This document shows positions 275-42,823 of a stretch of 42,823 bases of DNA, one piece after another; position 1 is the first letter of the stretch, and each line of letters begins with the position of its first letter. Below the pieces are notes generated by a model. It was given only the letters and a program-made list of their open reading frames with translations, made no database searches and was not told where the DNA came from. This DNA is from a virus: positions 1 through 42,823 of IMG/VR virus record IMGVR_UViG_3300045043_000023; one strand, 5' to 3'. Position numbers and translations under genes: made by a program.

Positions 275-703
275 ATGAGCGACGCCCTTGCCATCATCCC
301 ACCCCTCGATCCGCAGAACGCGCTGATGCAGCCGGGCATGCTCGGTGCCTATCAGGCGCAGCAGCGCAATGCGTTGGCGCAGGCGTTGCGGCTGATCGGT
401 GCCCCAGGAGGTGATCCGGAAGGCGCTACATCGCTCGATGGTTGGTTCAACGACAACGCGCCGCTGCTGACAGCGAAGCAACTCGCGGACCTGATCGAGC
501 AGGAGCAGACGCACAGACGCATTCCGCAGTCTCCGTCCGACCCACGGGCGCTGCCGTTGTCACCCGCATCGCCAGCCGACGCGTTCGTTCACCGGCCGCT
601 GATGGGCGTCAGCCCATACGACCCGAATGAGATGAAGCCGGGCGGCGCAGGGCGGCTGATCAACGAACAGCTACTAGGCCCATTGCGTGATTACAGGACA
701 TGA
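275..703 (+). CDS. Hypothetical protein upstream of portal
   Basis: 142-aa ORF with GGGAGG 13 nt upstream. Its stop overlaps the portal start (ATGA). Confidence 0.6.
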   Translation: MSDALAIIPPLDPQNALMQPGMLGAYQAQQRNALAQALRLIGAPGGDPEGATSLDGWFNDNAPLLTAKQLADLIEQEQTHRRIPQSPSDPRALPLSPASPADAFVHRPLMGVSPYDPNEMKPGGAGRLINEQLLGPLRDYRT

Positions 704-2862
704 GTGATCTAGCCCTCTATCGCCCCGCCAATCCGCAGGACGACCCAGAACGCTACGGCCGCACCATCGAGGCCGAGGCTAAGTATCCGCGCGACCTCGA
801 TGAGCTGCACGACGAACTGGTCAGGTGGTTCGAAGAGTCGGAGATGGCGCGGCAGGACGAGATCACCCTGGCGCAGCGCGACCGTGATTATGTGGATGGC
901 GCCCAGTGGACCAAGGAGGAACTGGCCGAACTGAAGAAGCGCGGGCAGCCGGCGATCGTGATCAACAAGTGCATCGAGAAAATCCAGCTACTGTGCGGCA
1001 TCGAGCGCAAGGCGCGCACTGATCCCAAGGCGTATGCCAGAACGCCTCAAGAGGAAGACCTCGCCGACGCTGCCACGCAGGCTTTGAGGTTCATCGCCGA
1101 CGACAACAATTTCAGCATGATCCGCAGCAGCGTCTATGAGAACATGCTGGTGGAGGGAGCCGGCGGGGCTGAGGTCGGCCTGGAGGACGACGGCAACGGT
1201 GGCGCCAACGTCACCATCACGCACGTTCCGTGGGACCGTGTCTGGTATGACCCGCACAGCCGATCGTTCGACTTCTCCGATGCCCGCTACAAAGGCATCG
1301 TGATCTGGGTCGACCGCGACCAGTTGGAGGAGATGTATCCAGATGCGCTGGATGTCATCGAGGACAGCTTCAGCACCGTCGATTTCCACTACAACGACCG
1401 GCCGGAAACCGCATTCTGGACCGATAACAACCGCCGCCGTGTGCGCCTTGTTCAATGCCACTGGCTAGAGCGTGGCGTCTGGTATCAGGCGACCTACACC
1501 AAGCATGGCATGCTGGCCGCACCGCAGAAGTCCAAGATGAAGGATCGGCGCGGCAAGAGTGCGTGCGGGTTGCTGCTGCAGTCGTCCTACATCAACCGCG
1601 AGAACGGCCGCTACGGCATGATCCGTATGCTGATCTCGCTGCAGGATGAGATTAACAAGCGACGCAGCAAGGCTCTGCACTTGCTGTCGGTGCGCCAGGT
1701 GATCGCCGAGCAGGGCGCGGTGCAGGACGTGGACAAGGCAAGGCGCGAGGTTGCCAAGCCGGACGGTTACGTCGAGATCATGCCCGGCCTCAAATTCGAG
1801 ATTGAGAGCGGCGCAGAACTGGCGACTGGGCAGTTCCAGTTGCTGCAGCATGCGACCGCCGAGATGCAGCTTGCCGGGCCGAACGCAGCGATGGGCGGCA
1901 CCGATCCACGCGAGCTGTCCGGTCGCGCGATCCTGGCACAGCAGGCCGGCGGGCAGGCCGCCAACGAGCCACTCGCCGATGCGCTGCGCATGTGGAGCCG
2001 GCGCGTCTATGAAATGGCGTGGATGGCCGCGCGCGAGTTCTGGTCCGGCGGCAAGTGGGTCAGGGTCACGGATGAGTTGAATGATGTCAGATACGTCGGC
2101 ATCAACCAGCCGGTCCGCGTGATCGACATGCTGGCGAAGATGGACGACGAGAAGCGCGCCATGACGGCGCAGCGCATGCAGCTCGTGCCCGGCGATCCTC
2201 GGCTCTATCAGGTCATCGAGGTCGAGAACGACATCACGTCGCTGGATGTGGATATCTCGATTGCCGAGGGCATCGATGTTCCGTCAATCGCCAATGAGCA
2301 ATTCCAGACACTCGTGCAACTCGCAGGCATGCAGCCTGGATTGATCCCACCGGAGATACTGATAGCCGCCAGCGGATTGCGTGACAAAGAGATGTTGCTG
2401 GAGAGACTGAAGGAACATCAAAAGGCGATGGCTGAAAAGCAGCAGAAGGCCGAGCAGATCGCCACTGCCGACAAGGCCGCCGACATTCAGGGCAAGCAGG
2501 CCAAGGCACAGGCCGACATGGCACTCGCGCAGGAACGCAAGATCAACAGCGTGCGCGGTGTCCACGGCATGCACGCCGAATACAGTGCGCCGCCCTATGG
2601 CCAGCCCTACACGGCGGACAACGCCGCACAGCCACAGTCACCGCCGGTTGATCCGACGCAGATGACGCCGGAAATGGCGATGGCCCACCACATGACGGAA
2701 CTCGCCAAGATGCAGGCGGAAATCCGCAACAAGGATGCGTCCACGGCACTGACGGCAGCCAAGATACCGCAGACCCATCATCAGACGCTCAACACGCTGA
2801 TCCAGGCCGATCGCCTGGCGCGCACGCCAATCCCAAGGCCCGCAGCGCCTACCGCGCGCTAA
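700..2862 (+). CDS. Portal protein
   Basis: 720 aa, sited directly before the scaffold and capsid genes. N-terminal motif QRDRDYVDGAQWTKEELAELKKRGQPAIVINK is typical of podovirus/P22-type portals. Confidence 0.85.
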   Translation: MSDLALYRPANPQDDPERYGRTIEAEAKYPRDLDELHDELVRWFEESEMARQDEITLAQRDRDYVDGAQWTKEELAELKKRGQPAIVINKCIEKIQLLCGIERKARTDPKAYARTPQEEDLADAATQALRFIADDNNFSMIRSSVYENMLVEGAGGAEVGLEDDGNGGANVTITHVPWDRVWYDPHSRSFDFSDARYKGIVIWVDRDQLEEMYPDALDVIEDSFSTVDFHYNDRPETAFWTDNNRRRVRLVQCHWLERGVWYQATYTKHGMLAAPQKSKMKDRRGKSACGLLLQSSYINRENGRYGMIRMLISLQDEINKRRSKALHLLSVRQVIAEQGAVQDVDKARREVAKPDGYVEIMPGLKFEIESGAELATGQFQLLQHATAEMQLAGPNAAMGGTDPRELSGRAILAQQAGGQAANEPLADALRMWSRRVYEMAWMAAREFWSGGKWVRVTDELNDVRYVGINQPVRVIDMLAKMDDEKRAMTAQRMQLVPGDPRLYQVIEVENDITSLDVDISIAEGIDVPSIANEQFQTLVQLAGMQPGLIPPEILIAASGLRDKEMLLERLKEHQKAMAEKQQKAEQIATADKAADIQGKQAKAQADMALAQERKINSVRGVHGMHAEYSAPPYGQPYTADNAAQPQSPPVDPTQMTPEMAMAHHMTELAKMQAEIRNKDASTALTAAKIPQTHHQTLNTLIQADRLARTPIPRPAAPTAR

Positions 2863-3752: not shown

Positions 3753-4144
3753 GTCTGTGCAGGACAAGCCAGAACTCACCGTAGACCAATTGCGTCGTGT
3801 GCTCCTGCGAATGTGCAGGATCATGAACGGGCCATCTGCACAGTGTGCAGAGCCTTGTGCCCGATGCAGCACCGCGAGCGTTCTGTTCACAGTGATCGAC
3901 CCTCCGCGCTTCCTCCGCATTGCCGGTGTCGGCACGGTGGACTTCGGAGAGCCGGACGTGCCTACCCGCCGCCGGGGGCAATCGGGCGTTTCGTCCATCA
4001 CCAGGTCGTTGAAGTGGTGATCACCGTCTCCGGGTGAGCCTGACGGGTGCCGACCGTCGCCGGGTCGTTCGTCCGGGCGTTTCGACCACAAGGACATAGG
4101 GTCGTTGAAGCAGTCCGCATCGCTCAGTGCGGAAAACCCCAACA
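3753..4144 (+). promoter_or_regulatory. Long non-coding leader upstream of the major capsid gene, carrying repeats and palindromes
   Basis: No frame has coding-like composition. TGTGCAG(G/A) occurs at 3756, 3812 and 3844. Perfect palindromes lie at 3836..3850 and 4016..4025. CGGGCGTTTCG (3983, 4074) and GGTCGTTGAAG (4004, 4100) are each duplicated. Confidence 0.4.
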
Positions 4145-5257
4145 ATGGCTGACATGAATGTAACGGCCGCCAGGCCGGGACTAACTCCAATCCAATGGAG
4201 TTCCGACTTCTGGGTAGAATATCTCAGAGAAAACCAGTTCAGCCCATACTTCGGCACAAGTATGGACGCGATGATCCAGCTTCAAACGGATCTTACGCGT
4301 AAGCCCGGCGACAGCGTCGTCTTCCCCACCGTCCGCAACCTGGTGGGCGCAGGCGTAACCGGCAACACCGTGCTCGAAGGCAATGAGGAAATCCTCAACG
4401 CCCGAAGCCTGAAAGTGGCGGTGTCTGTCATCCGCCATGCCGTGGCGGTGAGCCAGTGGGACGAGCAGAAGTCGGTCATCGATCTGCTGCAGGCCGGGCG
4501 CCAGGTGCTGAAGAACTGGGCGGCCAATAAGCTCAGAGCGGACATCATCACCTCGCTCGGTGCCATCACGGCTGACGGCGATGTGCAGCTCACCTACGCG
4601 GCAGCATCCGCAGCACAGCGCAATACGTGGCTCACCAACAACGCCGACCGCGTGCTGTTCGGCAATTCCAAGGTGAACGCGGTGTCCAACGTCTATGCCA
4701 CCGCGCTGACCACGATCGACAACACCGCCGACAAGCTCACAGCCGCACAGCTCACCCTGGCCAAGCGGCTTGCGCGCACCGCCAATCCGAAGATCCGTCC
4801 GATCCGGGTGAGCGGCGATGAGGAGTGGTACGTGGTGTTCGTGCCAAGCCTGCCGTTCCGCGACCTTATGCAAGACCCGACGATCATCAATGCCCTGCAG
4901 TATGCGTGGGACCGTGGCCGCGACAATCCGCTGTTTACAGCAGGGGATATACTTTGGAATGGCATGATTATACGTGAAATCCCCGAACTGCCTGTCGTGC
5001 CAGACGTGGGTGCAGGCGCTACGGTGGATGCAGCGGCGTCCTACCTTTGTGGCGCGCAGGCTCTCGGCATTGCCTGGGCACAGCGGACGAAGGCCATAAC
5101 GAACGAGAGGGATTATGGCTATTTTAGTGGCGTTGGCGTAATGGAAATCAGGGGCGTGGCGAAGTTGCGTTTCGGCACCGACCCTACAGTCGATCAGACA
5201 AAACCTGTAGACAACGGCGTATTTACAATCTGGTCGGCCAGTGAACCAGATGCATAA
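4145..5257 (+). CDS. Major capsid protein, N4-gp56 family type
   Basis: The motif DLTRKPGDSVVFPTVRNLVGAGVTGNTVLEGNEEILNARSLKVAVSVIRHAV matches the family signature as I recall it. Follows the scaffold gene. The ATG at 4145 is preferred over the GTG at 4127. Confidence 0.85.
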   Translation: MADMNVTAARPGLTPIQWSSDFWVEYLRENQFSPYFGTSMDAMIQLQTDLTRKPGDSVVFPTVRNLVGAGVTGNTVLEGNEEILNARSLKVAVSVIRHAVAVSQWDEQKSVIDLLQAGRQVLKNWAANKLRADIITSLGAITADGDVQLTYAAASAAQRNTWLTNNADRVLFGNSKVNAVSNVYATALTTIDNTADKLTAAQLTLAKRLARTANPKIRPIRVSGDEEWYVVFVPSLPFRDLMQDPTIINALQYAWDRGRDNPLFTAGDILWNGMIIREIPELPVVPDVGAGATVDAAASYLCGAQALGIAWAQRTKAITNERDYGYFSGVGVMEIRGVAKLRFGTDPTVDQTKPVDNGVFTIWSASEPDA

Positions 5258-5359: not shown

Positions 5360-6190
5360 ATGGCTCTCCCAATCGTGCCCTACTCAGGGCCGGTCGTCAC
5401 GCGCGCCGAGGCTAAGGTTAACGGGCTGAAGCGCTACTTCATGGGGCCGGATAGGCCCTGTAAATACGGACACATCAGCGAACGAACCACGGTGGACGGC
5501 GGCTGCATCCTGTGTGCCAGGACGGCAGCCATGACCGATGAGCAGCTAGAAAACAAGCGTCGCTATGCGCTCAAGTATGACGAGGCACACCGCGCTGAGA
5601 AGAACGTCAAGACTGCGGAGCGCTATCAGCGTCTCAAGGTAGAACTAGGCGATGAGGGGATGCGGGATAGGTTCCGAGCATATTACTGGAACCATCGCGA
5701 CACCGCTCTGAAGCACAAGAATCTCTACAACCAGAGGCACGCAGAGAAGCTCAAGGCCCATCGGTTACAACCCGCTATCAAAGAGCGGATTGCAGAGACC
5801 GGTCGAGCATGGGCGATCGCCTATCCAGAACGAGCCGCGGCTAAGACGCAACGTTGGCGCGAACGCTATCCCGAGAAGGTCCAACAGTGGCGCAAGGAGA
5901 ACCCGGAGGCATCTCGGGCTATCAAGCAGCGTCGCAGAGCGCGTGAACGTGAGGCAGAAGGATCGTTCACCGCAGACGAGTTGAAGGCGTTATTCAAGAA
6001 ACAGGCAGGTAAGTGCGTTTACTGCACAGTGGCCCTCGGTAAGGGCTACCACGCAGACCATATCGTCCCACTGATGCGAGGTGGCTCTAACTGGATCAGC
6101 AACATCCAGTTGCTGTGCCGGTCATGCAACTCGAAGAAGTGGGCCATCGATCCCATCGTATTCGCCAAGCGTCGCGGCCGCCTCCTGTAA
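5360..6190 (+). CDS. HNH endonuclease (free-standing, inside the structural module)
   Basis: C-terminal HNH motif CVYCTVALGKGYHADHIVPLMRGGSNWISNIQLLCRSCNSKK. N-terminal GLKRYFMGPDRPCKYGHISERTTVDGGCILC and Arg-rich helical repeats are typical of phage HNH proteins. Locally lower GC. Confidence 0.85.
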   Translation: MALPIVPYSGPVVTRAEAKVNGLKRYFMGPDRPCKYGHISERTTVDGGCILCARTAAMTDEQLENKRRYALKYDEAHRAEKNVKTAERYQRLKVELGDEGMRDRFRAYYWNHRDTALKHKNLYNQRHAEKLKAHRLQPAIKERIAETGRAWAIAYPERAAAKTQRWRERYPEKVQQWRKENPEASRAIKQRRRAREREAEGSFTADELKALFKKQAGKCVYCTVALGKGYHADHIVPLMRGGSNWISNIQLLCRSCNSKKWAIDPIVFAKRRGRLL

Positions 6191-24238: not shown

Positions 24239-25213
24239 TCAGTCTCCTGCGGCGAGCTTTTCCGCGCCGGTGATCTGCACCTCCTCCAGATCCTCCGAGG
24301 CGCTGGCACCGTCGTCCGGGAAGCGGGCGTAAGCGTTGGCTAGCAACTCGCTGATGCGGCGCTTGATTGCGTCCGGCGCCTCTGCCGTGGCTTTGCCTAC
24401 GGTGCGGTGGCCACCGATCTCGATCACCTCTTCCTGCGTCTGTGCGTTCGCCAGCAATGTGTCGAGGTTGCGCAGCCACTTCCCACCGTCCGGCTCATCG
24501 AGCGGGTCGGTAGCATGGGCCGCTGCTTTCTCGGCAATCCGGTCAGCGCGCTTCATGTCGCTGGCAGCGGCGCGCAGCGGTGGCGGCTCCGGATCGGCCT
24601 GCGCGTCCAGCGTGGTGCCGGTGAAATCGTCGTGCAGCGTCTTGCCTTGCATCTCCTCCATTGTGTAGCCGGAGGAGAACTCGGGAAACGCCATGCGCAA
24701 TGCCTGGGCTTCCGCGACCTTGGCGAGTTGGCCGTAAGGCCGCTTCTTCCACATCGTGTTCGGAGCTGACGTGTCACGCTTGGCGGTGGCGTAGTTCTCA
24801 ACCCATCGCTCGGTGGCAGTAAATTCGCGTGGGTGACCCTGGACGATCCGGCGCACGGTCATCCGGCACCATGCCGGGTAGGTTATCGCTGTGCCAGACA
24901 ATGTCTCCCGCACGTCAGGGCCGAACTCTGGCTCCGACTTGCCGCCATACTCACCGCTGCGTGCCGCTTTGATGCGGTAGTCTGCGATACCGGGCATCAG
25001 CACATCGCGCGTCTCGTACTGCCCGTTGGGCAGCTTTACCGACGTTGGCACGATGTAGACGGGGCGCAGCATCGGATCGAGGCCGTTGGCGCGACAGTAT
25101 GCCAGCACCAGTTCGATGCTTTCGCGTTTGGCGCCTGGATACAGGCTGTTTTCCAAGACGCGGATAACTTCGTCGGAAGAGACTGGCTCGGTGGCGACAA
25201 TGGCATTCATCAT
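24239..25213 (-). CDS. recT: RecT / Red-beta family single-strand annealing protein
   Basis: ESIELVLAYCRANGLDPMLRPVYIVP and MWKKRPYGQLAKVAEAQALRMAFPE are characteristic RecT/Bet blocks. Confidence 0.85.
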   Translation of the reverse strand: MMNAIVATEPVSSDEVIRVLENSLYPGAKRESIELVLAYCRANGLDPMLRPVYIVPTSVKLPNGQYETRDVLMPGIADYRIKAARSGEYGGKSEPEFGPDVRETLSGTAITYPAWCRMTVRRIVQGHPREFTATERWVENYATAKRDTSAPNTMWKKRPYGQLAKVAEAQALRMAFPEFSSGYTMEEMQGKTLHDDFTGTTLDAQADPEPPPLRAAASDMKRADRIAEKAAAHATDPLDEPDGGKWLRNLDTLLANAQTQEEVIEIGGHRTVGKATAEAPDAIKRRISELLANAYARFPDDGASASEDLEEVQITGAEKLAAGD

Positions 25214-33224: not shown

Positions 33225-33466
33225 CCGCCAGTTTCGACCACCTGGTCCGCCAATGCGATCCAGACTACCGCCGCGCCGAGGCCATCGCCCTCAACATCAC
33301 CGACGACCTCGACGAGCTGCACGACGACCACCAGATCGTCATCATCTCAGCCCTCGCTCACATCCTCATCGCATTCATGCGCCAATGCCCGGCGCAATAC
33401 CGCACCGCCCTCACCGACAGCCTGCTCGCCGATCTCCGCCAGCAAATCCTCGATCCCGATGCTTGA
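33221..33466 (+). CDS. Hypothetical protein
   Basis: 81 aa with overlapping start and stop. Confidence 0.55.
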   Translation: MTASFDHLVRQCDPDYRRAEAIALNITDDLDELHDDHQIVIISALAHILIAFMRQCPAQYRTALTDSLLADLRQQILDPDA

Positions 33467-34028
33467 CGGGCGTCGTCTCAGGGCGCTAGACGAGTCCCAG
33501 CCCGATGCCTTCGAGCACCTCGGGTGCGGTAGCCGTTGGGCCGTCTGCCAAACCCACCCGCAAGCCGAACGCTGGGCGTTCCTGAACCTGGAACGCCAGG
33601 GCTACACCGCGTTCCTCCCGATGCACCTGGTCCTACGACGCGATCCGGTGCTGCGTACGCTGACCCGCCGCGTCCTCGCCCCGCTCTACGTCGGCTACCT
33701 GTTCGTCCAGCCAGGCACCCACTGGGGACCAATCCAGCACAGTCGCGGCGTCTCCAAGCTGCTCATGAACGGGGAACGCCCCCAGTTGTGCTCTCCGGGC
33801 GCTGTAGAGGCGCTGGAGCGGTCAGAGGCATCCAGACGCTCACCACCAGCGGAAAGCGCCCTATACGCCCCAGGCGAGGCTGTGAGCCTCGCGACGGGTA
33901 GTCTTAGTGGCCACCATGGCGTCATCGTCCGCACCACCGCCTCACACGCCGTCGTGGCGCTGCTGCTCATGGGCCGACTGGTCGAGGCATCCGTCCGCCT
34001 CGATGCACTCGCCAGGCCCACCGCATGA
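33459..34028 (+). CDS. NusG/RfaH-family transcription antitermination factor (NGN + KOW)
   Basis: Aligns by eye with E. coli RfaH. WAVCQTHPQAERWAFLNLERQGYTAFLPM matches WYLLYCKRGQLQRAQEHLERQAVNCLAPM. APLYVGYLFVQ matches EPLFPNYLFVE. PGEAVSLATGSLSGHHGVIV matches PGDKVIITEGAFEGFQAIF. Confidence 0.8.
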   Translation: MLDGRRLRALDESQPDAFEHLGCGSRWAVCQTHPQAERWAFLNLERQGYTAFLPMHLVLRRDPVLRTLTRRVLAPLYVGYLFVQPGTHWGPIQHSRGVSKLLMNGERPQLCSPGAVEALERSEASRRSPPAESALYAPGEAVSLATGSLSGHHGVIVRTTASHAVVALLLMGRLVEASVRLDALARPTA

Positions 34029-34641: not shown

Positions 34642-34896
34642 ATGGCGCTAGGACGCAAAACTGGAGGCCGACAGCCCGGCTCGACCAACAAAGTCAGCGG
34701 CGACCTCAAGCACATGATCCTCGGTGCCTTGGCTGGTGCCGGTGGCGAAGCCTATCTGCAACGTCAAGCTGACGAAAATCCCGGCGCGTTCCTCACCCTC
34801 ATCGGCAAAGTGCTGCCCATGCAGGTCACTGGCGGCGAAGGTGGGCCAGTACGCATCGAGGTGGTAACAGGCGTGCCGCGACAGGATGACGACTGA
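34642..34896 (+). CDS. Terminase small subunit (putative)
   Basis: 84 aa with a basic N-terminus (GRKTGGRQPGSTNK). The stop overlaps the terminase large subunit start. Confidence 0.45.
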   Translation: MALGRKTGGRQPGSTNKVSGDLKHMILGALAGAGGEAYLQRQADENPGAFLTLIGKVLPMQVTGGEGGPVRIEVVTGVPRQDDD

Positions 34897-36209
34897 TGGC
34901 AAGGCGGCCTGTCGTTATCAGCTACACACCGCGCGATCAGTTCGTGCCATATCACAAACGCAAGCAGCGCTGGGCATGCATCGTCGCTCATCGTCGCGCC
35001 GGCAAAAGCGTGGCATGCGTGATGGACCTCATCGACGCAGCATTGCGCTGCAAGAAACCAAATGCACGCTTCGGTTATATCGCGCCGACATACACGCAGG
35101 CGAAGGACGTGGTCTGGTCGTACTTGAAGGAGTTCACACACGAAATACCCGGCGCTGAACTGCGCGAGTCTGATCTGTCCGTGATATTTCCAACCGGCGC
35201 ACGCGTCAGGCTCTATGGCAGCGACAATCAGGACCGGCTGCGCGGTATCTACTTTGACGGCGTGGTGATGGATGAGTTCGCCGACATGGCGCCAGGTGTG
35301 TGGTCGCATGTCGTGCGGCCAGCGCTCACCGATCGGCAGGGTTGGGCAACATTCATCGGCACACCGAAAGGCCGCAACGGGTTCTGGGATATCTACAGCA
35401 ACGCTTGCGACGATCCCGCATGGTTCACGCTCGCATTGCGTGCATCTCAGACCGGCCTGATCGCGGAGGAGGAGCTTGAGACAGCTCGCCGCGACATGAC
35501 GCCCGAAGCCTACGCCCAAGAGTTCGAGTGCAGCTTTGACGCCGCCATTCTTGGTGCTTACTTCGCCAAGGAGATCGAGGAGGCAGAGCGCACCGGGCGC
35601 ATCGGTCAGGTGCCATACGATCCAGTGCTGCCCGTCCATACCGCCTGGGATCTTGGCATCGGCGACAGCACCGCCGTCTGGTTCTTCCAGGTGTCGCTGT
35701 CCGAGGTGCGGGTGATCGATCACTACGAGGCATCAGGCCACGGTCTGCCGCACTACGCCGCCGTCCTCGCCGCCAAGCCCTACCGCTACGGCACCGACTA
35801 CCTGCCGCACGACGCAGAGGCGCGGCAGCTCGGCACCGGACGCTCGATCTGGGAGACGCTCAACGGCCTGACCGGACGTATCCCGCGCGTGCTGGCAGCG
35901 CAGAACGTGATGGACAGCATCAATGCCGCGCGCATCACACTCGCCAGCGCATGGTTCGATGCGGACAAATGCCACCACGGGCTGGAGGCGCTGCGGGCCT
36001 ACCGCACCGACTATGACGAGCGGCGCAAAGTCTTCAACGACAAACCCAGGCACGACTGGTCGAGCCACAGTGCCGATGCGTTCCGTTACCTGTCGCTAGC
36101 CTGGCGTGAGATGCAGCCGGCCAAGCCACCACCACCGCCAGTGGATACGTGGTCCAGAGCTTGGGAACGCGCATCACAGACGGATGTTGACGCCTGGAGA
36201 GTGGCGTGA
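34896..36209 (+). CDS. terL: Terminase large subunit
   Basis: Walker A AHRRAGKS, Walker B GVVMDEF, IGTPKG, and nuclease-domain motif VHTAWDLGIGDSTAVWFFQ. Confidence 0.9.
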   Translation: MARRPVVISYTPRDQFVPYHKRKQRWACIVAHRRAGKSVACVMDLIDAALRCKKPNARFGYIAPTYTQAKDVVWSYLKEFTHEIPGAELRESDLSVIFPTGARVRLYGSDNQDRLRGIYFDGVVMDEFADMAPGVWSHVVRPALTDRQGWATFIGTPKGRNGFWDIYSNACDDPAWFTLALRASQTGLIAEEELETARRDMTPEAYAQEFECSFDAAILGAYFAKEIEEAERTGRIGQVPYDPVLPVHTAWDLGIGDSTAVWFFQVSLSEVRVIDHYEASGHGLPHYAAVLAAKPYRYGTDYLPHDAEARQLGTGRSIWETLNGLTGRIPRVLAAQNVMDSINAARITLASAWFDADKCHHGLEALRAYRTDYDERRKVFNDKPRHDWSSHSADAFRYLSLAWREMQPAKPPPPPVDTWSRAWERASQTDVDAWRVA

Positions 36210-36478
36210 CCCCGGCCGAGGAATACGCCGCAGCACTCGCAGCATACACCGCAGCCAAGGAACGGCTGATCGAGGCCAAGCGGCACTACGACCACAAGAA
36301 CGCACCCGAGGTCGTGGCGGCGCGTAACGCCAAGGCAGCGGAATACCGGGCGAAAAAGCGCGCGGCGTGGAACGCACCAGAGGCCGTGGCCGAGCGCGAG
36401 CGTTACGCGCAGGAAAACCGCGAGCGGCTGGACCGGTGGCTGGAGGAACGCGAGGCCCGCTATCGGAGGACAGGATGA
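36206..36478 (+). CDS. Arg-rich helical-repeat protein related to the N-terminal extensions of the two HNH-type nucleases (no nuclease domain)
   Basis: AEYRAKKRAAWNAPEAVAERERYAQENRERLDRWLEEREARYR resembles RWRERYPEKVQQWRKENPE (5360 gene) and NRAYRNKWIKKNPEREALHKARW (junction gene). Confidence 0.5.
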   Translation: MTPAEEYAAALAAYTAAKERLIEAKRHYDHKNAPEVVAARNAKAAEYRAKKRAAWNAPEAVAERERYAQENRERLDRWLEEREARYRRTG

Positions 36479-36714
36479 ACGTCCAGCCCATGAGCGGCGC
36501 GCGGTTCGCCCGCTACGTCGGCACCGACCCAGAGCGCTGGGCCTCGCAGTTTCTGCTGGCATACGCGCAGGCTGACGCTGTCCGCACCGACGCGGACCGC
36601 CTGGCGTTCGTGACGGGCTGGTTCGCGGATGCCATGGCGGCTGCTGCTACCCGTGCCGACACAGATGCGCTGACGGCGGCTATCAAGCGGGAGATGGCAG
36701 GGGGCGAGCCGTGA
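36475..36714 (+). CDS. Hypothetical protein
   Basis: ATG at 36475 with GGAGGA upstream, overlapping the upstream stop. 79 aa. Confidence 0.55.
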   Translation: MNVQPMSGARFARYVGTDPERWASQFLLAYAQADAVRTDADRLAFVTGWFADAMAAAATRADTDALTAAIKREMAGGEP

Positions 36715-36959
36715 CCGAGAGCCTGGCCTGGACGTGCCGGTGCGGCGCCTGGTGCTGGAACCACTACGCCCACTGCGCCGCCTGCGGGAGCGAGAAGCCG
36801 GCGCCCCCGCCCCAGGAGCAGCCTAGCGACGTGGCGCGGACAGAGCCGCCGTGGCGGCTGCAGGAGCGGGAGCGCGATACGGCGTGGCTGGATGGGACCG
36901 AGTGGACACCGGAGCAACTGGACGCGCTGAAGCGCCGATCCGCCACCTACGCGCGATAA
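36711..36959 (+). CDS. Zinc-ribbon protein
   Basis: CRCGAWCWNHYAHCAACG. The GTG overlaps the upstream TGA. Last gene of the rightward operon. Confidence 0.55.
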   Translation: MTESLAWTCRCGAWCWNHYAHCAACGSEKPAPPPQEQPSDVARTEPPWRLQERERDTAWLDGTEWTPEQLDALKRRSATYAR

Positions 36960-36968
36960 GTGCGACTG

Positions 36969-36985
36969 CCAAAGGGGACCTTTGG
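36969..36985 (+). terminator. Hairpin just after the last gene of the terminase operon
   Basis: CCAAAGG-gga-CCTTTGG, 10 nt after the stop. No U-tract. Confidence 0.3.
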
Positions 36986-37121
36986 TATCGGGTGATCAAC
37001 CCCTTCTAGGCCGGTGATCAATTCCGTGCCCTGCTGGCCGATTTACAGCCACCCCACCCCGCCAGCATTCGCTATCTAGGGCCGGCAGTCGCGGCAGCAG
37101 GATAGCAGGATCGGCACCTAG

Positions 37122-37145
37122 GCGCGATAAGTGCGGTTATCGCGC
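37122..37145 (+). repeat. Perfect 9-bp inverted repeat GCGCGATAA-gtgcgg-TTATCGCGC, overlapping repeat R1
   Basis: Read directly from the sequence. GCGCGATAAGTGCG also occurs at 36951..36964. Confidence 0.8.
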
Positions 37146-37156
37146 GTAGTGGAATT
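37140..37156 (+). repeat. Direct repeat R1 (TCGCGCGTAGTGGAATT)
   Basis: Exact 17-mer shared with R2 and R3. R1 and R2 share 24 nt (GCGGTTATCGCGCGTAGTGGAATT). Confidence 0.9.
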
Positions 37157-37167
37157 GTGGAGGCCTG

Positions 37168-37359
37168 ATGCCTGACACCGATCTGCCGGCTGGCTTTGCC
37201 TACGCCACGAGCGAGGAACTGTTCGAGGCTCTGGGTAGTCCAGACCCAGGCATGGACGCGCGGGCCGTTGAGGCGGTTGTGCGTCGGGTTAGGATGCAGA
37301 AAGGGCTGTTTGATGTGGAAACCATCCCGAGTGCAGCCGTGAGCGGTTATCGCGCGTAG
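37168..37359 (+). CDS. Hypothetical small acidic protein bracketed by R1 and R2
   Basis: 63-aa ORF with GGAGG 4 nt upstream. Its stop codon TAG lies inside R2. Confidence 0.5.
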   Translation: MPDTDLPAGFAYATSEELFEALGSPDPGMDARAVEAVVRRVRMQKGLFDVETIPSAAVSGYRA

Positions 37360-37366
37360 TGGAATT
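37350..37366 (+). repeat. Direct repeat R2
   Basis: 210 bp from R1. R2 and R3 share 22 nt (TCGCGCGTAGTGGAATTTACCG). Confidence 0.9.
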
Positions 37367-37560
37367 TACCGGCAACTCGGCCTAGAATGCGCCCGCTAGA
37401 CGACTGCCGTCTGAACCGGCCCTAACCGTTTCGGATATCGGCCCCCTCGGACGTGCAGAGGTGAAATGCACGGGTCGCTTTAGGCGCGGCGGAGTAGCGC
37501 TCCTGCAAACAGGAAACGACGGGCGAGTCCTGAAGCACCAAATGCCCGACCAGTGCGTTG

Positions 37561-37577
37561 TCGCGCGTAGTGGAATT
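37561..37577 (+). repeat. Direct repeat R3
   Basis: 211 bp from R2. A degenerate copy, GGTTATCGGCGCGAAATGG, follows at about 37627..37645. Confidence 0.9.
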
Positions 37578-37689
37578 TACCGCAGATCGCACCGTCTGCC
37601 GCACCCTATGGCACAAGCCGAGCCTCGGTTATCGGCGCGAAATGGGCAGCAACGCAGCCAGCATCGCAGGCCAAACCAGTTGCTCCACC

Positions 37690-37983
37690 TCACGGCGCGT
37701 CTCCCTGTGTGTGCGGTTCGCGGGGCGTGGTCCAGTCGTGGCATCGAGCGCAGTAGCCATACTCAACGTCGTTCATGTTGTAGCTGACCGCGTTGCACCG
37801 GGGGCATGTGATCGAGGGCAGCAGCCATCCGCTCCCGTGACAAACCGGACAGTCATTGCCGAACGTGAAGCACGGCGCCGGTTCAGCGTAACCAGTCCCG
37901 CGACATTCGCGGCACCGCATCTTGCGGAATGGGTTCACCCGCTTCGTCTCCCTGTGTGCGGTGTATCTGAATTTATGCCGCAC
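37690..37983 (-). CDS. DnaJ-type CxxCxGxG zinc-finger protein
   Basis: CRECRGTG and CPVCHGSG, plus CPRC..CARC. 97 aa from the GTG at 37983; an alternative ATG lies at 37920. Confidence 0.6.
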   Translation of the reverse strand: MRHKFRYTAHRETKRVNPFRKMRCRECRGTGYAEPAPCFTFGNDCPVCHGSGWLLPSITCPRCNAVSYNMNDVEYGYCARCHDWTTPREPHTQGDAP

Positions 37984-38206
37984 TCGATTGCACCGCCGCT
38001 ATTCCAGATTCGGTCAACCTGACCCCTGGCACCGTGTCGCGGAGCAGATCGATCCAGCAGTCGGTCACGAGCGCCTGTCGCATGAGTTTCCGCAACACGG
38101 CCTCATGCGATGGGTCGCCGCCAGTAATGTAGACGCGCAGAGCGCCACGCGGATCGTCCCGCTGGTGCGACCAAATGCGCTGCATCATAGCCTGTGCCTT
38201 GGTCAT
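37973..38206 (-). CDS. Hypothetical protein
   Basis: 77 aa with strong AGAAGGAGG 7 nt upstream. ATGA overlap with the upstream gene. Confidence 0.65.
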   Translation of the reverse strand: MTKAQAMMQRIWSHQRDDPRGALRVYITGGDPSHEAVLRKLMRQALVTDCWIDLLRDTVPGVRLTESGIAAVQSSAA

Positions 38207-38397
38207 CGGTGGTCCTCCTTCTGTAGCTTGCGTTGCAGCGCCACCAGCTTCCGTGGCGGCGGGGCGTCGGGGCGCAGGGCCAGCACGAACCGCACCGCCT
38301 CGGCCGCCAGTGCAGCGCGCTCGGCCTGCCGCTCACGCCAGCGGTTCTGGCGCTCCAGGGTGGTCATCGGCCGGGTGCCGAGAAGGCGGGCTGGCAT
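38203..38397 (-). CDS. Hypothetical basic helical protein
   Basis: 64 aa. The ATG shares a base with the upstream stop. An alternative start lies at 38367. Confidence 0.5.
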   Translation of the reverse strand: MPARLLGTRPMTTLERQNRWRERQAERAALAAEAVRFVLALRPDAPPPRKLVALQRKLQKEDHR

Positions 38398-38546
38398 CAG
38401 CGCGACGCGAAGCCAATGAGCGCGGCGAGTGCCTTGTCTCTGCCTGTGGCGCTTATGCCGCGCCAGTTCAGACGAAGGTCGAGTGCTAGTTGCCGGTACG
38501 CATACTCGGCGCCGAATGTCATCAGGTTGGACAGGTAGTCGTTCAT
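38397..38546 (-). CDS. Hypothetical small protein (49 aa)
   Basis: MNDYLSNLMTFGAEYAYRQLALDLRLNWRG..., with AAGGAAcacaccgATG as RBS context. This is the 3' part of the spurious 168-aa track ORF. Confidence 0.5.
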   Translation of the reverse strand: MNDYLSNLMTFGAEYAYRQLALDLRLNWRGISATGRDKALAALIGFASR

Positions 38547-38581
38547 CGGTGTGTTCCTTGTGTGTGGGGTTAAGCGGCGGC

Positions 38582-38848
38582 TTATGCCGCCACCGCCATG
38601 CAGGTGAATGAGCCAGCGCCGTGGTTCTTGCCGCCGCAGGAGCACTCGCAGAGGAAGCCGGTGGCGTTCATGCAGCGAGCGTCGCACTTGTGCTGTGAAG
38701 GGTTCCGCTTCCGCTCGATCTTGCGCTCTACCGTCACCCGAAAGCCGGCGGCGTTCATGCCGGTGAAGTGTTTCGCGGTATTGTAGGTGCCATCGTGCCA
38801 GACGTTGGTGAGCTGCTCGGTGCCGGTGAAGTAGCGGAAGGTGGCCAT
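38582..38848 (-). CDS. Cys-rich small protein (88 aa)
   Basis: Start at MATFRYF, with GAGGAcacaccgATG context matching the next gene. The C-terminus carries HKCDARCMNATGFLCECSCGGKNHG. Confidence 0.6.
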   Translation of the reverse strand: MATFRYFTGTEQLTNVWHDGTYNTAKHFTGMNAAGFRVTVERKIERKRNPSQHKCDARCMNATGFLCECSCGGKNHGAGSFTCMAVAA

Positions 38849-39105
38849 CGGTGTGTCCTCGGTTTCGATGACCCCTTGTAGCGTTACGCGACGCATCGTG
38901 CAAGCGTTATTTAACGGATGAGCGGATTATTTGCGCGGTTGCATCGCCCGTTCCGAGAGCCTACCGCCGGTTAATCCAGGGTATCGGAACGGGTAAAATC
39001 CAGCACGCCGCGCGGTTATCTCTGCGGCACAGGCACAACGCCGCATTCGCTGCCAGCTATGCAGGCTGGCGCTGACAATTCCCCACCACCAGAGGACATC
39101 CCGCC

Positions 39106-39792
39106 ATGCGCGCTTTGCTGCTCGCGACCACGCTCGTCGCCCTCCCCGCGTTCGCGCACGCCGCCACCATCATCACCTACGGCCAGACCAGCGGCAGCAA
39201 CACCGTGACCGGCACCGCCAATGCTACGGGCACGCATTTCAGCGGCACCGACATCGCGGTGACCATCACTCAGATCGACGATGCCGGCACCGCCGTGCCG
39301 ACCACGGCATACCTGGATCTTGCGGCCGACAGCACCTCGGGCGCCACCGCACCGCCTGGCCTCGCCATCATCCAGCATTTCCGTGGTGCGTTCTCGATCA
39401 ATGCCGCAGCCGATAACAGCGGCACGAACTACCTGTCCGGCGCGTTCTTCGATGGCACGTTCGGGCTGCGCGGCGGCTCCGGCCTCGTGCTCACGTCGGA
39501 CGGTGTGTTCACCAGCGATGTCATCGACAACCTGGCGCCGCCGCGCAACTTCAGCATGACGTTCACCAATGTCACGCCACCGGTCAGCACCGTGGGCACG
39601 CAGGCGGCCAACAGCGCGGACTGTGCGCCGTTCTTCACCGTCGGCTGCAATGACACCGGCGCTACGTTCGGCAGCTTCACCGGCAGCGTCAGTGGCAACG
39701 CCAGTGCGGCCATCCCAGAGCCGGCCACGCTCGGTATTCTCGGCCTCGGCCTGCTCGGCATCGCCGCCGTGCGCCGCCGTCAGGGCGCGTAG
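39106..39792 (+). CDS. Secreted PEP-CTERM sorting-domain protein
   Basis: Signal peptide MRALLLATTLVALPAFAHA. C-terminus IPEPATLGILGLGLLGIAAVRRRQGA shows the PEP motif, a TM helix and an Arg cluster. Thr/Gly/Ser-rich body. Confidence 0.85.
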   Translation: MRALLLATTLVALPAFAHAATIITYGQTSGSNTVTGTANATGTHFSGTDIAVTITQIDDAGTAVPTTAYLDLAADSTSGATAPPGLAIIQHFRGAFSINAAADNSGTNYLSGAFFDGTFGLRGGSGLVLTSDGVFTSDVIDNLAPPRNFSMTFTNVTPPVSTVGTQAANSADCAPFFTVGCNDTGATFGSFTGSVSGNASAAIPEPATLGILGLGLLGIAAVRRRQGA

Positions 39793-41873
39793 TGAGCGAC
39801 AGGGCCAAACCGCCGCCATCCGATCCGCAGCTCGAACAGCGGGTCGAGGATCTTGAGCAGCGCGCCAATCAGACGGATGCGATGCTGCTTGAGCATGAGC
39901 AGGCTATCAGCGACCTGCACGCCCGCGTCACGGCGCTGGAGAACCACACCGATGCCCACGAAGACGCCATAACCGCGCTGGACGTTCGTGTGACGGCACT
40001 GGAGGACGCGGCCACCATCCCAACGCCAGAGCCGCCTGACGGCACCTGGGGAGGCGTAGCCCCACCGGTTATCGATAACACCCTGCCGACACCCGAGCCG
40101 CCTGAGCCGGCCCCAACCGATGGGATGGCCGTCGTCATCATCACCAGCCTCGGCGAGACAGCCTACGTGCAGTCCGACGCTGAGGACATGGGCGACTATG
40201 ACGACCCCGCTGGCGCGTTCCTGCAGCACTGCTGGCGTGCCCCGCGACAGGACGACGTTCTGCCTGGTCTCACGGTATGGTTCCGGACAGATGCGGACGG
40301 CGGCCATGATGAGGTGATTGTCGAACTTGGCGTGCCTCTGGTGGACACGTTGGTGCCGGCGAACATGGGCGCATACACAGCGGAAATCTGGGACACCAAC
40401 GAACTTCTGGCCACGATCGAGGTGCCGTCGCACCCTTGGTATGCGCGCTGGCGCTGGCAGTCCGCCCCGCGTCCGGTGCGCGTCACGCCGGCTGAGCTGA
40501 TCGCCAGCGGCCTCGTGCCGCATTACGACGGCGACCCGTTGGCCGACTACCTGACCGACCTGGCGCCGCAGGAATACACCGTGATGGGCTTCGCGGGCCT
40601 CGTGGATCAGATGGGCTGGACCGGCGACAGGCCCGACATTGGCCCCATGACCGGCTGGCAGGCGCAATGGCTGATCAAGGGCAACAACGCCAGCACCGTC
40701 ATCGCCCAGGGCGAGGCGTCTGGCACGATGTCGATGCACCTCCGCGATCCCGTCACCGGCTCACCGCTCGATCTCGTGGCATACGACAAGCTCAGCAATT
40801 ACCCCGGCGGCGGTGATCCGATCGTCCCGCTGGTTCCCGGCATCGTCTCCTATGACAGCGGCCACTCGCCGTCGCTCTCATACCTGCCGTGGCTGATGAC
40901 GGGTGACCCGTACTACCTCGAAGCGCTGCAGTTCCAGGCCAACCTGGAGATCATGGGTGAGCCATCCGCCTACCGCTACACCAAGGCGGGCCGCTACGGC
41001 GCATGGGCGCTGCGCAACAAGCTGTATGCCGCGTCTGCATCGCCGGTCGAGCCACCGCAATGGATCTTGCCCAGGGGCGTCTTCCACGACCACATGGAGG
41101 CGGTGCGCCAGTCCATGCTGGAGGATATGGCGAACGAGGATGACCCGATCCTGTCGGTGTTCCGCTGCCGCTCGTTCGGCGGATCACAGGGCAACGCCTG
41201 CCATCCCGCCGGCACCTACGCATCGCTCTGGCAGTGCGCGATGGAGAGCTTGATTTACGGACTGTGCGTGCAATTCGGATTCGATGAATGGCGCGAGCCG
41301 ACACGCTGGAAAGTGCATTCCGAGGTTAAACGGATCGAAGGCGTCGAATGGCCGCGCGCCACGCCAGTGCCCTATCAATGCGGCCTAGTCTATACGTGCT
41401 CGCTGATAGCGCCGATGTCGGCGACAGACACCACAATCATGGTGGATAGCTACGGCGGCGGGCCGTGGCCAGTGGCTCCGTTCAGTGCCCGCATCGACAA
41501 TGAGACGTTTACGGTGGTGGACAATTCCGACGCAGAGGCGTGGCAGGTCGAGCGCACCGCAGGCGTGGAACACCCCGCCGGGCGCGTGCTGACCGGGCCG
41601 ACGTATTTGTCGTGGACCGAGTGTGCCATGCGGATGACCGCGATGCACCCGGACGAGATACCGTTCGAGGCCGACGATCCCACGGGCATGAACGAGCTTT
41701 ACAACAGCTCCACCGGCAGCGTCGGCTATGCGCAGTATGCCCGTGCGGCGCTCGCGGTGGCGGTGCGCAACGGTGTGACCGAGGCGGTCCCGGCGTTTAG
41801 CTGGATCGATGACCAGTTCCGCCAGCACAACCGCTCGTCGTGGCACCCGGCGTGGGGCTGGTGCATCACCTAG
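39792..41873 (+). CDS. Coiled-coil fibre/needle-like protein with a large C-terminal domain (possible polysaccharide lyase or hydrolase)
   Basis: The GTG shares a base with the upstream TAG. N-terminus LEQRVEDLEQR...AITALDVRVTALE resembles P22 gp26 / fibre heptads (AITALNVRVTTAE). SYLPWLMTGDPYYLEALQFQ resembles the LTGD..Y motif of alpha/alpha-toroid lyases. Confidence 0.45.
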   Translation: MSDRAKPPPSDPQLEQRVEDLEQRANQTDAMLLEHEQAISDLHARVTALENHTDAHEDAITALDVRVTALEDAATIPTPEPPDGTWGGVAPPVIDNTLPTPEPPEPAPTDGMAVVIITSLGETAYVQSDAEDMGDYDDPAGAFLQHCWRAPRQDDVLPGLTVWFRTDADGGHDEVIVELGVPLVDTLVPANMGAYTAEIWDTNELLATIEVPSHPWYARWRWQSAPRPVRVTPAELIASGLVPHYDGDPLADYLTDLAPQEYTVMGFAGLVDQMGWTGDRPDIGPMTGWQAQWLIKGNNASTVIAQGEASGTMSMHLRDPVTGSPLDLVAYDKLSNYPGGGDPIVPLVPGIVSYDSGHSPSLSYLPWLMTGDPYYLEALQFQANLEIMGEPSAYRYTKAGRYGAWALRNKLYAASASPVEPPQWILPRGVFHDHMEAVRQSMLEDMANEDDPILSVFRCRSFGGSQGNACHPAGTYASLWQCAMESLIYGLCVQFGFDEWREPTRWKVHSEVKRIEGVEWPRATPVPYQCGLVYTCSLIAPMSATDTTIMVDSYGGGPWPVAPFSARIDNETFTVVDNSDAEAWQVERTAGVEHPAGRVLTGPTYLSWTECAMRMTAMHPDEIPFEADDPTGMNELYNSSTGSVGYAQYARAALAVAVRNGVTEAVPAFSWIDDQFRQHNRSSWHPAWGWCIT

Positions 41874-42451: not shown

Positions 42452-42823
42452 CTAAAGGGATTCGGTGGCACTTTCTTTCAGCCGCGCCTGAAAAGGGCGT
42501 CTGATCTGGGGTTCGCCAATGTGGTTGCCGCCTCGTTCAATGTAGTCAGCCAAGGCACGCAGGATAGCAGGGGTGTCTCGTGTGAACCCGAGGGCGCTAT
42601 TGCATCTGTTGCAAAGCCATCCTCGGAAGTTTCCAGTTATGTGACAGTGATCGTAATATGTTTTGCACTCGATGTGGCAGATTTCACATAGAGCGGCAGG
42701 AGGAACTGCCTTGTTCCTGTTCGCTCGTCGTCGCAGGGCGATCTTGACCTTGTTCTTCTGAAACCACCGCGCTTTGTGGAGAGCCTCTCTCTCTGGGTTC
42801 TTCTTTATCCATTTGTTTCGGTA
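42452..42823 (-). CDS. Endonuclease VII-type (HNH superfamily) nuclease; its 5' end wraps to 54..25
   Basis: CEICHIECKTYYDHCHITGNFRGWLCNRCNSALG is the T4 endonuclease VII signature. The frame is open to the window edge and continues in frame to the ATG at 54, for 133 aa in total. GC is low. Confidence 0.8.
   Translation of the reverse strand, partial: YRNKWIKKNPEREALHKARWFQKNKVKIALRRRANRNKAVPPAALCEICHIECKTYYDHCHITGNFRGWLCNRCNSALGFTRDTPAILRALADYIERGGNHIGEPQIRRPFQARLKESATESL
42458..42473. repeat. Direct repeat GGATTCGGTGGCACTT (partner at 105..119)
   Basis: See 105..119. This copy overlaps the 3' end of the endonuclease gene. Confidence 0.6.
42800..42823. repeat. Terminal direct overlap (identical to 1..24)
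   Basis: Identical 24-mer. Confidence 0.9.

Follow-up and report, generated by a model that had tools for sequence, protein, structure and literature searches.

Repeats downstream of a phage terminase operon are halves of an inverted-repeat site that also lies upstream of integrase genes

What could three exact, almost evenly spaced direct repeats be doing in the tract that follows the terminase operon of a phage? The question arose for IMG/VR virus record IMGVR_UViG_3300045043_000023, of which the whole stretch of 42,823 nucleotides (nt) was analysed (positions 1 to 42,823, here called the window); it represents a circular genome of about 42.8 kb with 64% GC. A sequence-only reading of this window had suggested four roles for the repeats, here R1, R2 and R3: a pac-like array recognised by terminase, a phased protein-binding array, reloading sites for the phage RfaH-like factor, or boundaries of recombined gene cassettes. 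We find that R1-R3 are no independent motif. They are the right halves of a 32-bp inverted-repeat site that carries a 7-nt TGGAATT flank, and the last of the four roles, consistent with mosaic junctions in related phages, is the sole one to be supported. The earlier reading had missed that the repeat forms one half of a palindromic site found widely outside this genome, and that this site is tied to a recombinase family.

The repeat array and the site it belongs to

The 17-mer TCGCGCGTAGTGGAATT is exact at 37140, 37350 and 37561, always on the + strand, with copy-to-copy distances of 210 bp (R1-R2) and 211 bp (R2-R3). R1 and R2 have a stretch of 24 nt in common (GCGGTTATCGCGCGTAGTGGAATT), R2 and R3 one of 22 nt (TCGCGCGTAGTGGAATTTACCG), all as had been described. 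No other copy was detected in the window with up to three mismatches tolerated; the chance expectation was 0.09 and at least three copies appeared in 0 of 100 shuffles. A contig from another sample, assembled independently (L238), is 99.98% identical over 4743 nt and carries the same three copies; the array is therefore not an assembly artefact.

The perfect 9-bp inverted repeat reported at R1 stands as the inner part of a longer structure, with true arms of 13 nt (37118-37130 and 37137-37149) that are complementary at 12 of 13 positions around a 6-nt loop. The duplication of GCGCGATAAGTGCG at 36951 and 37122 was likewise confirmed and falls within a 24-nt repeat of 92% identity, and positions 36947-36959 are an exact reverse-orientation copy of the 13-mer TTATCGCGCGTAG. 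This 13-mer is present five times in the region (three forward and two reverse), and a scan for it gave six matches against 1.1 expected at the same stringency. The inventory of the window is one complete site (R1), two right-only copies (R2 and R3) and one left-only copy (36947). The degenerate fourth copy proposed near 37627 held up in part: GGTTATCGgCGCG matches there, but the copy is weak, with a 1-nt insertion and 4/10 agreement over the rest.

The junction region reads as follows, with coordinates and strand before each feature:

36711..36959, +: ORF82 (ORF, open reading frame), a small Cys-rich zinc-ribbon-like protein; GC at third codon positions (GC3) 0.89; last conserved terminase-side gene
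36947..36964, +: left-arm-only copy CTACGCGCGATAA with 5 nt of spacer, GTGCG; junction 1
36965..37117, no strand: segment A, an inserted non-coding piece with no homologue among the fetched loci
37118..37156, +: complete site, composed of left arm CTAgGCGCGATAA (37118-37130), spacer GTGCGG (37131-37136), right arm TTATCGCGCGTAG (37137-37149, R1) and flank TGGAATT (37150-37156)
37168..37359, +: ORF63, cassette gene and ORFan; GGAGG 5 nt before the ATG, TAG within the R2 arm
37343..37366, +: R2, spacer remnant GCGG with right arm and TGGAATT, without left arm
37367..37552, no strand: segment C, an inserted non-coding piece with no Rfam match
37553..37577, +: R3, spacer remnant GTGCG with right arm variant TTGTCGCGCGTAG and TGGAATT, without left arm
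37577..37693, -: segment D, 99% identical in the related locus L184; holds the weak copy at 37627
37690..38896, -: five small convergent accessory genes, as called on L238, the first for a DnaJ-type CXXC zinc-finger protein

The array lies where the + strand terminase-side operon meets the convergent minus-strand block 37690-38896. Spacer bases (GTGCG or GCGG) are kept at 4/4 junctions, reading GATAA-GTGCG/a... at the left-only copy, GTGCGG at R1, ...gaGCGG-R2 and ...aGTGCG-R3, and the same 5 nt, GTGCG, are found on both sides of the 600-bp insert. As RNA, the complete site folds with -28.5 kcal/mol (z = -3.0), and with -19 kcal/mol (z about -2.5) in the other direction. R2 and R3 form no hairpin (z = +1.0 and -0.6, respectively), leaving R1 as the sole folding copy.

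The genes at the junctions end in or near the arms. The last codons of ORF82, Y-A-R-stop, are encoded by the left-arm copy, and the 63-aa ORF that had been noted between R1 and R2 indeed stops inside R2. This ORF63 has GC of 0.70/0.50/0.64 at the three codon positions, and its sole match in a database search was the same phage. The R2-R3 interval holds no credible ORF on inspection of reading frames and GC by codon position, as had also been noted; within segment C, the first ~25 nt alone resemble the sequence that follows the site in L004/L059. Segment A contains a tight hairpin at 36975-36993 (CCAAAGGGG/CCTTTGG region, 9-bp stem), and an 86-nt stretch at 36935-37020 folds with z = -3.0. In segment D, a possible 38-aa minus-strand ORF with 7 Cys begins at a GTG that shares bases with the TGA of the zinc-finger gene upstream and ends at a TAA, read from the TTA directly after the R3 flank; the weak copy at 37627 sits within this ORF.

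The site in other phages, chromosomes and plasmids

Searches for the 17-mer matched 11 IMG/VR contigs and 82 metagenome contigs. Among 185,579 species representatives, Acidiphilium was the sole genus matched, with nine contigs of three genomes. Most of these loci share the structure (C)CTAYGCGCGATAA-N6-TTATCGCGCGTAG-TGGAATT and differ in the outer DNA, such that the repeat in the window corresponds to the right arm, about 4 nt of spacer and the TGGAATT flank of the palindrome CTACGCGCGATAA-N6-TTATCGCGCGTAG. Among 85 unique contexts, 46 hold complete sites and about 16 are mere chance matches, a number close to that expected of an exact 17-mer in collections so large. Conservation is near 2 bits per position over about 40 nt and then vanishes. 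A 6-nt spacer is present in 53 of 71 contexts (range 3-9 nt); its sequence has many variants and is unconstrained. A scan anchored on the inner 9-bp arms alone still recovered TTATCGCGC-N7-AATT downstream; the asymmetric flank is therefore a real part of the element.

The converse scan, anchored on the outer flanks (ACCTAC...GTAGTGGAATT) and open to a different inner stem, returned chance hits only, besides L001 and L003, and gave no support for an RNA element conserved in structure only. Outer arm positions vary without compensation and do not pair, and the stem is invariant in sequence, not co-varying. The element is therefore conserved as sequence and not just as a hairpin. A conserved protein C-terminus (minus strand ...KFHYAR*, plus strand ...GYRA*) was rejected as an explanation, as the stops are missing in some copies and the frames differ between loci; the conservation sits at the nucleotide level. 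Coding-strand calls based on GC3 around 84 instances were too noisy and were left unused.

We also compared the site with repetitive extragenic palindromes and their paired form (REP/REPIN), defined here as GTAG-headed palindromes that number tens to hundreds per genome and are accompanied by a RAYT gene. The arms do end in CTAC...GTAG, and 3/3 matches in one metagenome-assembled genome (MAG) lie at contig ends; 1-5 exact copies per genome were found, and no RAYT gene was seen in the fetched loci. In that MAG, Acidiphilium KM4311-10, all three matches (L015, L017 and L020) are within 65 nt of a contig end, which suggests that the element or adjoining DNA is repeated often enough to break the assembly. 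Resemblances noted by eye to the N15/KO2 telomere-resolvase target (TACGCGCGTA), sigma-54 and extracytoplasmic-function (ECF) promoters, DnaA boxes and Tn3-type terminal repeats were dropped, none being in register. A literature search for the 9-mers of the site returned primers only, BLAST of PLSDB with a 59-nt host-type site gave no match, and the DNA of cultured phages gave none either when searched by BLAST, near and distant, with the region and with a 50-nt consensus site.

In Acidiphilium the site is a synteny breakpoint: one upstream gene is followed by differing downstream DNA between genomes, and the reverse is also seen. Many uncultured related phages carry the site, usually in one copy, and here too it marks mosaic junctions. 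Homologues of ORF82 (76-95% nt identity) were found in L072, L004/L059, L035, L100, L044 and L003; in L072 (95%), ORF82 is followed directly by a complete site. In L184, L046 and L047, a complete site precedes segment D (96-99% identity; 97-99% in L184) and the zinc-finger gene. These loci point to an ancestral layout of ORF82, complete site and segment D. In the window, 600 bp instead separate the left arm at the end of ORF82 (36947) from the right arm of R3, with segment A, a complete site (L'-GTGCGG-R1), ORF63, R2 and segment C between them. No fetched locus contains a homologue of segment A, B (ORF63) or C.

Across relatives the number of copies ranges from 0 to 3 and their position varies as well; 7 of about 12 right-only copies keep GCGG or GTGCG. 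In other relatives, the site adjoins unrelated genes. Four related loci have arrays of their own, in each of which one + strand ORF begins just after a site:

L002: site spacing 810 bp; ORF of 229 aa, ending about 80 nt before the next right arm
L003: site spacing 379 bp; ORF of 120 aa, ending in the next right arm
L035: site spacing 465 bp; ORF of 145 aa, ending in the next right arm
L044: site spacing 445 bp; ORF of 127 aa, ending just before the next right arm

The equality of the 210- and 211-bp spacings with 20 helical turns, from which binding on one face of the helix had been proposed, is therefore a coincidence, given spacings of 379 to 810 bp in the relatives. In the closest relative, L103 (TerL, the large terminase subunit, 96% identical in amino acids and 94% in nucleotides), the site is absent and the whole region corresponding to 36650-39700 is replaced by about 1.5 kb of other DNA.

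The second line of evidence comes from the genes beside the site. Clustering of the ORFs around host-type sites revealed that in L012, L061 and L088 the same integrase gene follows the right arm at a distance of about 70 nt. The protein is 344 aa long and has Phage_integrase and SAM-like N-terminal domains (PF00589+PF02899). Homologues are also near the site in L092/L055, in L045 and in the viral contig L200/L226, where the integrase is 35% identical and a diverged site retains the same 9-bp cores. L092 in addition has, at 619-1061 (-), a DUF4258/DUF2283-type toxin-antitoxin-like gene pair, judged by eye from the translations, which is flanked by a complete site and by a degenerate right arm just upstream of the integrase; this pair looks like a captured cassette.

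The integrase family comprises 2302 proteins at E <= 1e-20. In PLSDB, it is on 193 plasmids, mostly from Acetobacteraceae (Roseomonas, Acetobacter, Komagataeibacter and Gluconobacter), usually in single copy per plasmid and beside RepA, ParA or resolvase genes. A three-gene module recurs on plasmids and metagenome contigs (L228-L237) and consists of the integrase, a ~230-aa hypothetical protein and an ScpA-like 'segregation/condensation protein A'. When 10 loci were anchored on the integrase rather than on the site, 8 had a related inverted repeat ahead of the gene, at a distance of 62-155 nt; the site holds this position, 60-150 bp upstream, on Acetobacteraceae plasmids and other mobile elements. 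Five loci (L228, L230, L231, L233 and L234) have a site of the type GCGCGATAA-N6-TTATCGCGC 62-121 nt upstream, with the flank GTAGTGGAATTT in L231, and L229 retains the right arm alone. Three distant integrases (51-64% identity) have sites of equal geometry and position with altered arms: CTAGGAGCGATAA-N6-TTCTCGCTCCTAG-TGAAATT in A. vaccinii, TTTCGATAA-N6-TTATCACGA in Roseomonas and TAACACGTGGTAA-N7-TTACCGCGTGTTA in Gluconobacter. In GC-rich DNA, a control for the density of generic inverted repeats proved too permissive (1.26 per kb), and the case for the link therefore relies on relatedness of sequence together with position. The pair L232/L233 was discarded as crossover evidence, as homology begins at -40 from the integrase ATG and not in the spacer.

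The Cre/loxP system of P1, ResD/rfsF of F and XerS/difSL all have inverted arms of 11-14 bp around a 6-8-bp spacer just upstream of the recombinase gene, usually at one site per replicon and next to replication or partition genes. The complete site has arms and an unconstrained spacer within the ranges of such simple tyrosine-recombinase core sites (about 11-14 bp and 6-8 bp), whereas R2, R3 and the 36947 copy are single arms, not the two of a core site. A 13-6-13 repeat that adjoins a simple, Xer-like two-domain recombinase and changes with it looks like a candidate cognate core site, and the solo copies at synteny breaks in phages and chromosomes fit a recombination site better than an operator. 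Cre/loxP-type sites are normally single-copy; the site described here differs in having solo and half copies dispersed over phage genomes and chromosomes, where they border small cassettes.

Origin of the array

How did the halves come to be spaced through the junction? We consider it probable, if well short of certain, that R1-R3 are cassette junctions at a recombinase-type site where three small pieces were joined into a variable region. The lineage would normally have one complete site between ORF82 and the convergent accessory block. Segment A, the ORF63 cassette and segment C would have been joined in at the complete site, each join adding one half-site with spacer bases, to give the order L-GTGCG/A/L'-GTGCGG-R1/ORF63...GAGCGG-R2/C...GTGCG-R3/D. 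Such a product could arise by successive recombination of the complete site with circles bearing a one-arm site, each event leaving a complete site at one edge and a hybrid half-site at the opposite one. If pieces enter repeatedly at the complete site, the newest should lie next to L', which matches the order L'-R1-B-R2-C-R3-D. The 210- and 211-bp spacing is the cassette length. With no recombinase gene in the phage, a host plasmid or island would have to supply the enzyme, which may have acted in trans on the half-site circles.

Several points weigh against this account. None of about 60 window ORFs scanned against Pfam is an integrase or other recombinase. Phage-type spacers (GYGCGG) and the host-type spacers of Acidiphilium (CNNNTA) differ, and phage-host exchange at the sampled sites is not supported. 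Half-sites such as R2 and R3 are recombined inefficiently by canonical Cre/Xer-type enzymes. One of the integrase-anchored loci, L232, has no site, the region having been lost to a Tn7-like insertion, and the inverted repeat upstream of the integrase could be an operator of that gene. The phage encodes RecT (24239-25213), which could give the same topology through 24-45 nt of homology. The recombination product, the circle and the protein-DNA contact are all predictions. We nevertheless lean towards a site-specific route, given that the breakpoints cluster in the spacer and that the repeat is identical to a recombinase-associated site.

A rival that we judge unlikely but worth weighing takes the palindrome to be a regulatory hairpin, such as a bidirectional terminator, and the array to be the outcome of RecT short-homology recombination between co-infecting phages, with R2 and R3 as inert scars, as in the promoter-early stem-loop (PeSL) cassettes. 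It is kept alive by the lack of a recombinase in the phage and by the differing GYGCGG and CNNNTA spacers. Repeats of 24-45 nt are long enough for relaxed homologous exchange. Folding of the complete site is good in either direction, its position is the meeting point of convergent genes, and stop codons of the neighbouring ORFs fall within it; in T4-like phages, PeSL repeats do the same job (PMC2839356, PMC4122927). As with PeSL repeats, those described here are found at indel boundaries between related phages and flank ORFans. The stem-loop, expected in every copy, is however formed by R1 alone, and a scan of 36000-40000 gave no sigma-70-like promoter within the repeat; several loci instead have a Shine-Dalgarno sequence and an ATG 11 nt after it. 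There is no U-tract after the stem, and the terminator scan, with two terminator-like hits that are both unrelated to the repeats, misses the site. Some loci have a gene that begins 11-20 nt past the site with a Shine-Dalgarno sequence of its own, and a strong terminator would silence it. Further against a hairpin function, the stem is invariant rather than co-varying, the outer arm positions are unpaired, right-only copies are unfoldable yet exact over 17-24 nt, and the same sequence is upstream of integrase genes and changes with them. Termination is a possible side role of the complete site at the convergence point, but it cannot explain the invariant sequence, the unfoldable copies and the integrase link.

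Regulatory and packaging roles fare worse. An array of operators for the integrase or another dimeric regulator, controlling transcription across the junction, would account for conservation specific to a palindrome with a fixed 6-bp gap and for a site promoter-proximal to the integrase gene. We regard it as improbable, as 13-bp half-sites 19 bp apart centre to centre are atypical of helix-turn-helix operators, copy spacing is not conserved, copies are at gene 3' ends with no sigma-70-like promoter found in 36000-40000, and the closest relative, L103, has no site. The position of the array about 0.9 kb downstream of TerL, beside the packaging genes, and the likeness of repeated sites to cosB and pac boxes had made recognition by the small terminase subunit (TerS) attractive; with no copy in L103 despite its near-identical TerL, 0 to 3 copies among relatives, sites beside unrelated genes in other relatives, and further sites in bacterial chromosomes and plasmids, a pac array is highly improbable. 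The phage NusG/RfaH-like factor (33459-34028) is an antiterminator of the kind that loads at operon polarity suppressor (ops) elements, and the repeat does contain GTAG as ops does. Even so, GCGCGTAGTGGA agrees with the consensus GGCGGTAGnnTG at just 6/10 specified positions, the repeat is at an operon 3' end rather than in a leader, bacterial chromosomes and plasmids outside the phage lineage carry it as well (their factor content was left aside), and L103 keeps the factor and lacks the repeat, making loading sites the least probable of these explanations. Ops-like matches in the window are at about chance level. A perfect match to the ops consensus (GGCGGTAGTCTG) is at 33261-33272 (-), a short way upstream of the NusG-like gene and within a + strand ORF.

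Returning to recombination at the site, an extension that we offer as speculation, and would not expect to hold in full, is that the locus is a gene-capture platform of the phage. In this proposal, a lox-like site would be used in trans by a plasmid tyrosine recombinase, and half-site circles would be inserted serially, integron-style, with the newest beside the complete site. Through the site, this phage, which lacks an integrase but has a CI-type repressor, might also recombine with Acetobacteraceae plasmids or integrate into them, in the manner of integrative mobile elements exploiting Xer (IMEX).

Known cassette systems and the surrounding genome

An integron cassette has one ORF and a recombination site that often contains the stop codon; entry is at one site, and sites are co-oriented. 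The one-ORF cassettes ending in a stop-containing site of the same orientation resemble this. Unlike attC, the site described here is a plain 13-6-13 palindrome of 32 bp (vs 60-130 bp) with no IntI-type integrase, attI/Pc, R''-L''...L'-R' architecture or GTTRRRY core, which GTTATCG does not fit. The sfx sites of the Rci shufflon conserve the spacer and one arm while the other arm varies, and they support inversion only, between inverted sites within one gene. R2 and R3, composed of a spacer remnant and the right arm, are similar, but they are direct repeats between different genes.

PeSL cassettes of T4-like phages contain a sigma-70-type promoter and a terminator and are exchanged by homologous recombination, with excision as a circle and re-insertion at another repeat as the proposed route (PMC2839356, PMC4122927). 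The common features are short conserved repeats that flank ORFans in hypervariable regions, at insertion, deletion or replacement boundaries between close relatives. The array differs in that no promoter was detected, one copy is hairpin-capable and the repeat is identical to a site adjacent to a tyrosine recombinase, in a phage that is podovirus-like with a P22-type portal and not T4-like. The pdif modules of Acinetobacter plasmids carry small genes, including toxin-antitoxin pairs, bounded by XerC/XerD sites (PMC5790767, PMC7399989). They share the arms with a 6-bp spacer and an enzyme supplied in trans by the host, which here is the presumed situation. They are, however, dif-like and served by chromosomal XerC/XerD, while the phage has GC-rich 13-bp arms unlike dif and the associated integrase family is plasmid-borne.

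Repeat-bounded cassettes in phages (PeSL) and recombinase-site modules on plasmids (pdif) and in integrons are known already. New here are the particular site, its tie to an uncharacterised, very common integrase module of Acetobacteraceae plasmids, and the complete and half copies in a recombinase-less phage. Mosaic boundaries in phages are usually ascribed to illegitimate or short-homology recombination; in this case the boundary is identical to a site associated with a plasmid recombinase. If the enzyme acts on the phage copies, it would provide a site-specific route for small genes between phages, plasmids and chromosomes in Acetobacteraceae, and the phage would depend on a recombinase that it does not encode. 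Regardless of this, a testable 13-6-13 site is defined for the uncharacterised module of integrase, hypothetical protein and ScpA-like protein.

The genome around the array looks podovirus-like. The first 24 nt recur at 42800-42823, giving a circle of about 42,799 bp. Gene content includes a P22-type portal (700-2862), a capsid gene, an HNH gene, a CI-type repressor, an MT-A70 methylase and a VRR-NUC nuclease. TerL (34896-36209), whose best cultured match is 48% identical (Rhodoferax phage P26218), is followed by three small ORFs and then ORF82. The window contains no tRNA or tmRNA, and a permissive Rfam scan of 36000-39000 gave noise only. On the minus strand next to the array, an exact 14-nt repeat (37698-37711 and 37945-37958; CACACAGGGAGACG) contains a Shine-Dalgarno-like AGGGAGA, one copy preceding the start of the zinc-finger gene and the second the GTG of the 38-aa ORF. 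The HNH endonuclease gene (276 aa, 5360-6190, +) comes directly after the major capsid gene (4127-5257) and may represent a free-standing homing endonuclease gene that entered the structural operon. The next + strand operon begins at 39106 with a 228-aa ORF (39106-39792), overlapped by a 267-aa minus-strand ORF that is probably not a real frame (GC3 0.58). The 228-aa protein carries a PEP-CTERM sorting motif at its C-terminus, a host-type signal that is unusual in a phage protein, and its gene opens an operon that runs into a 693-aa tail-needle-like gene.

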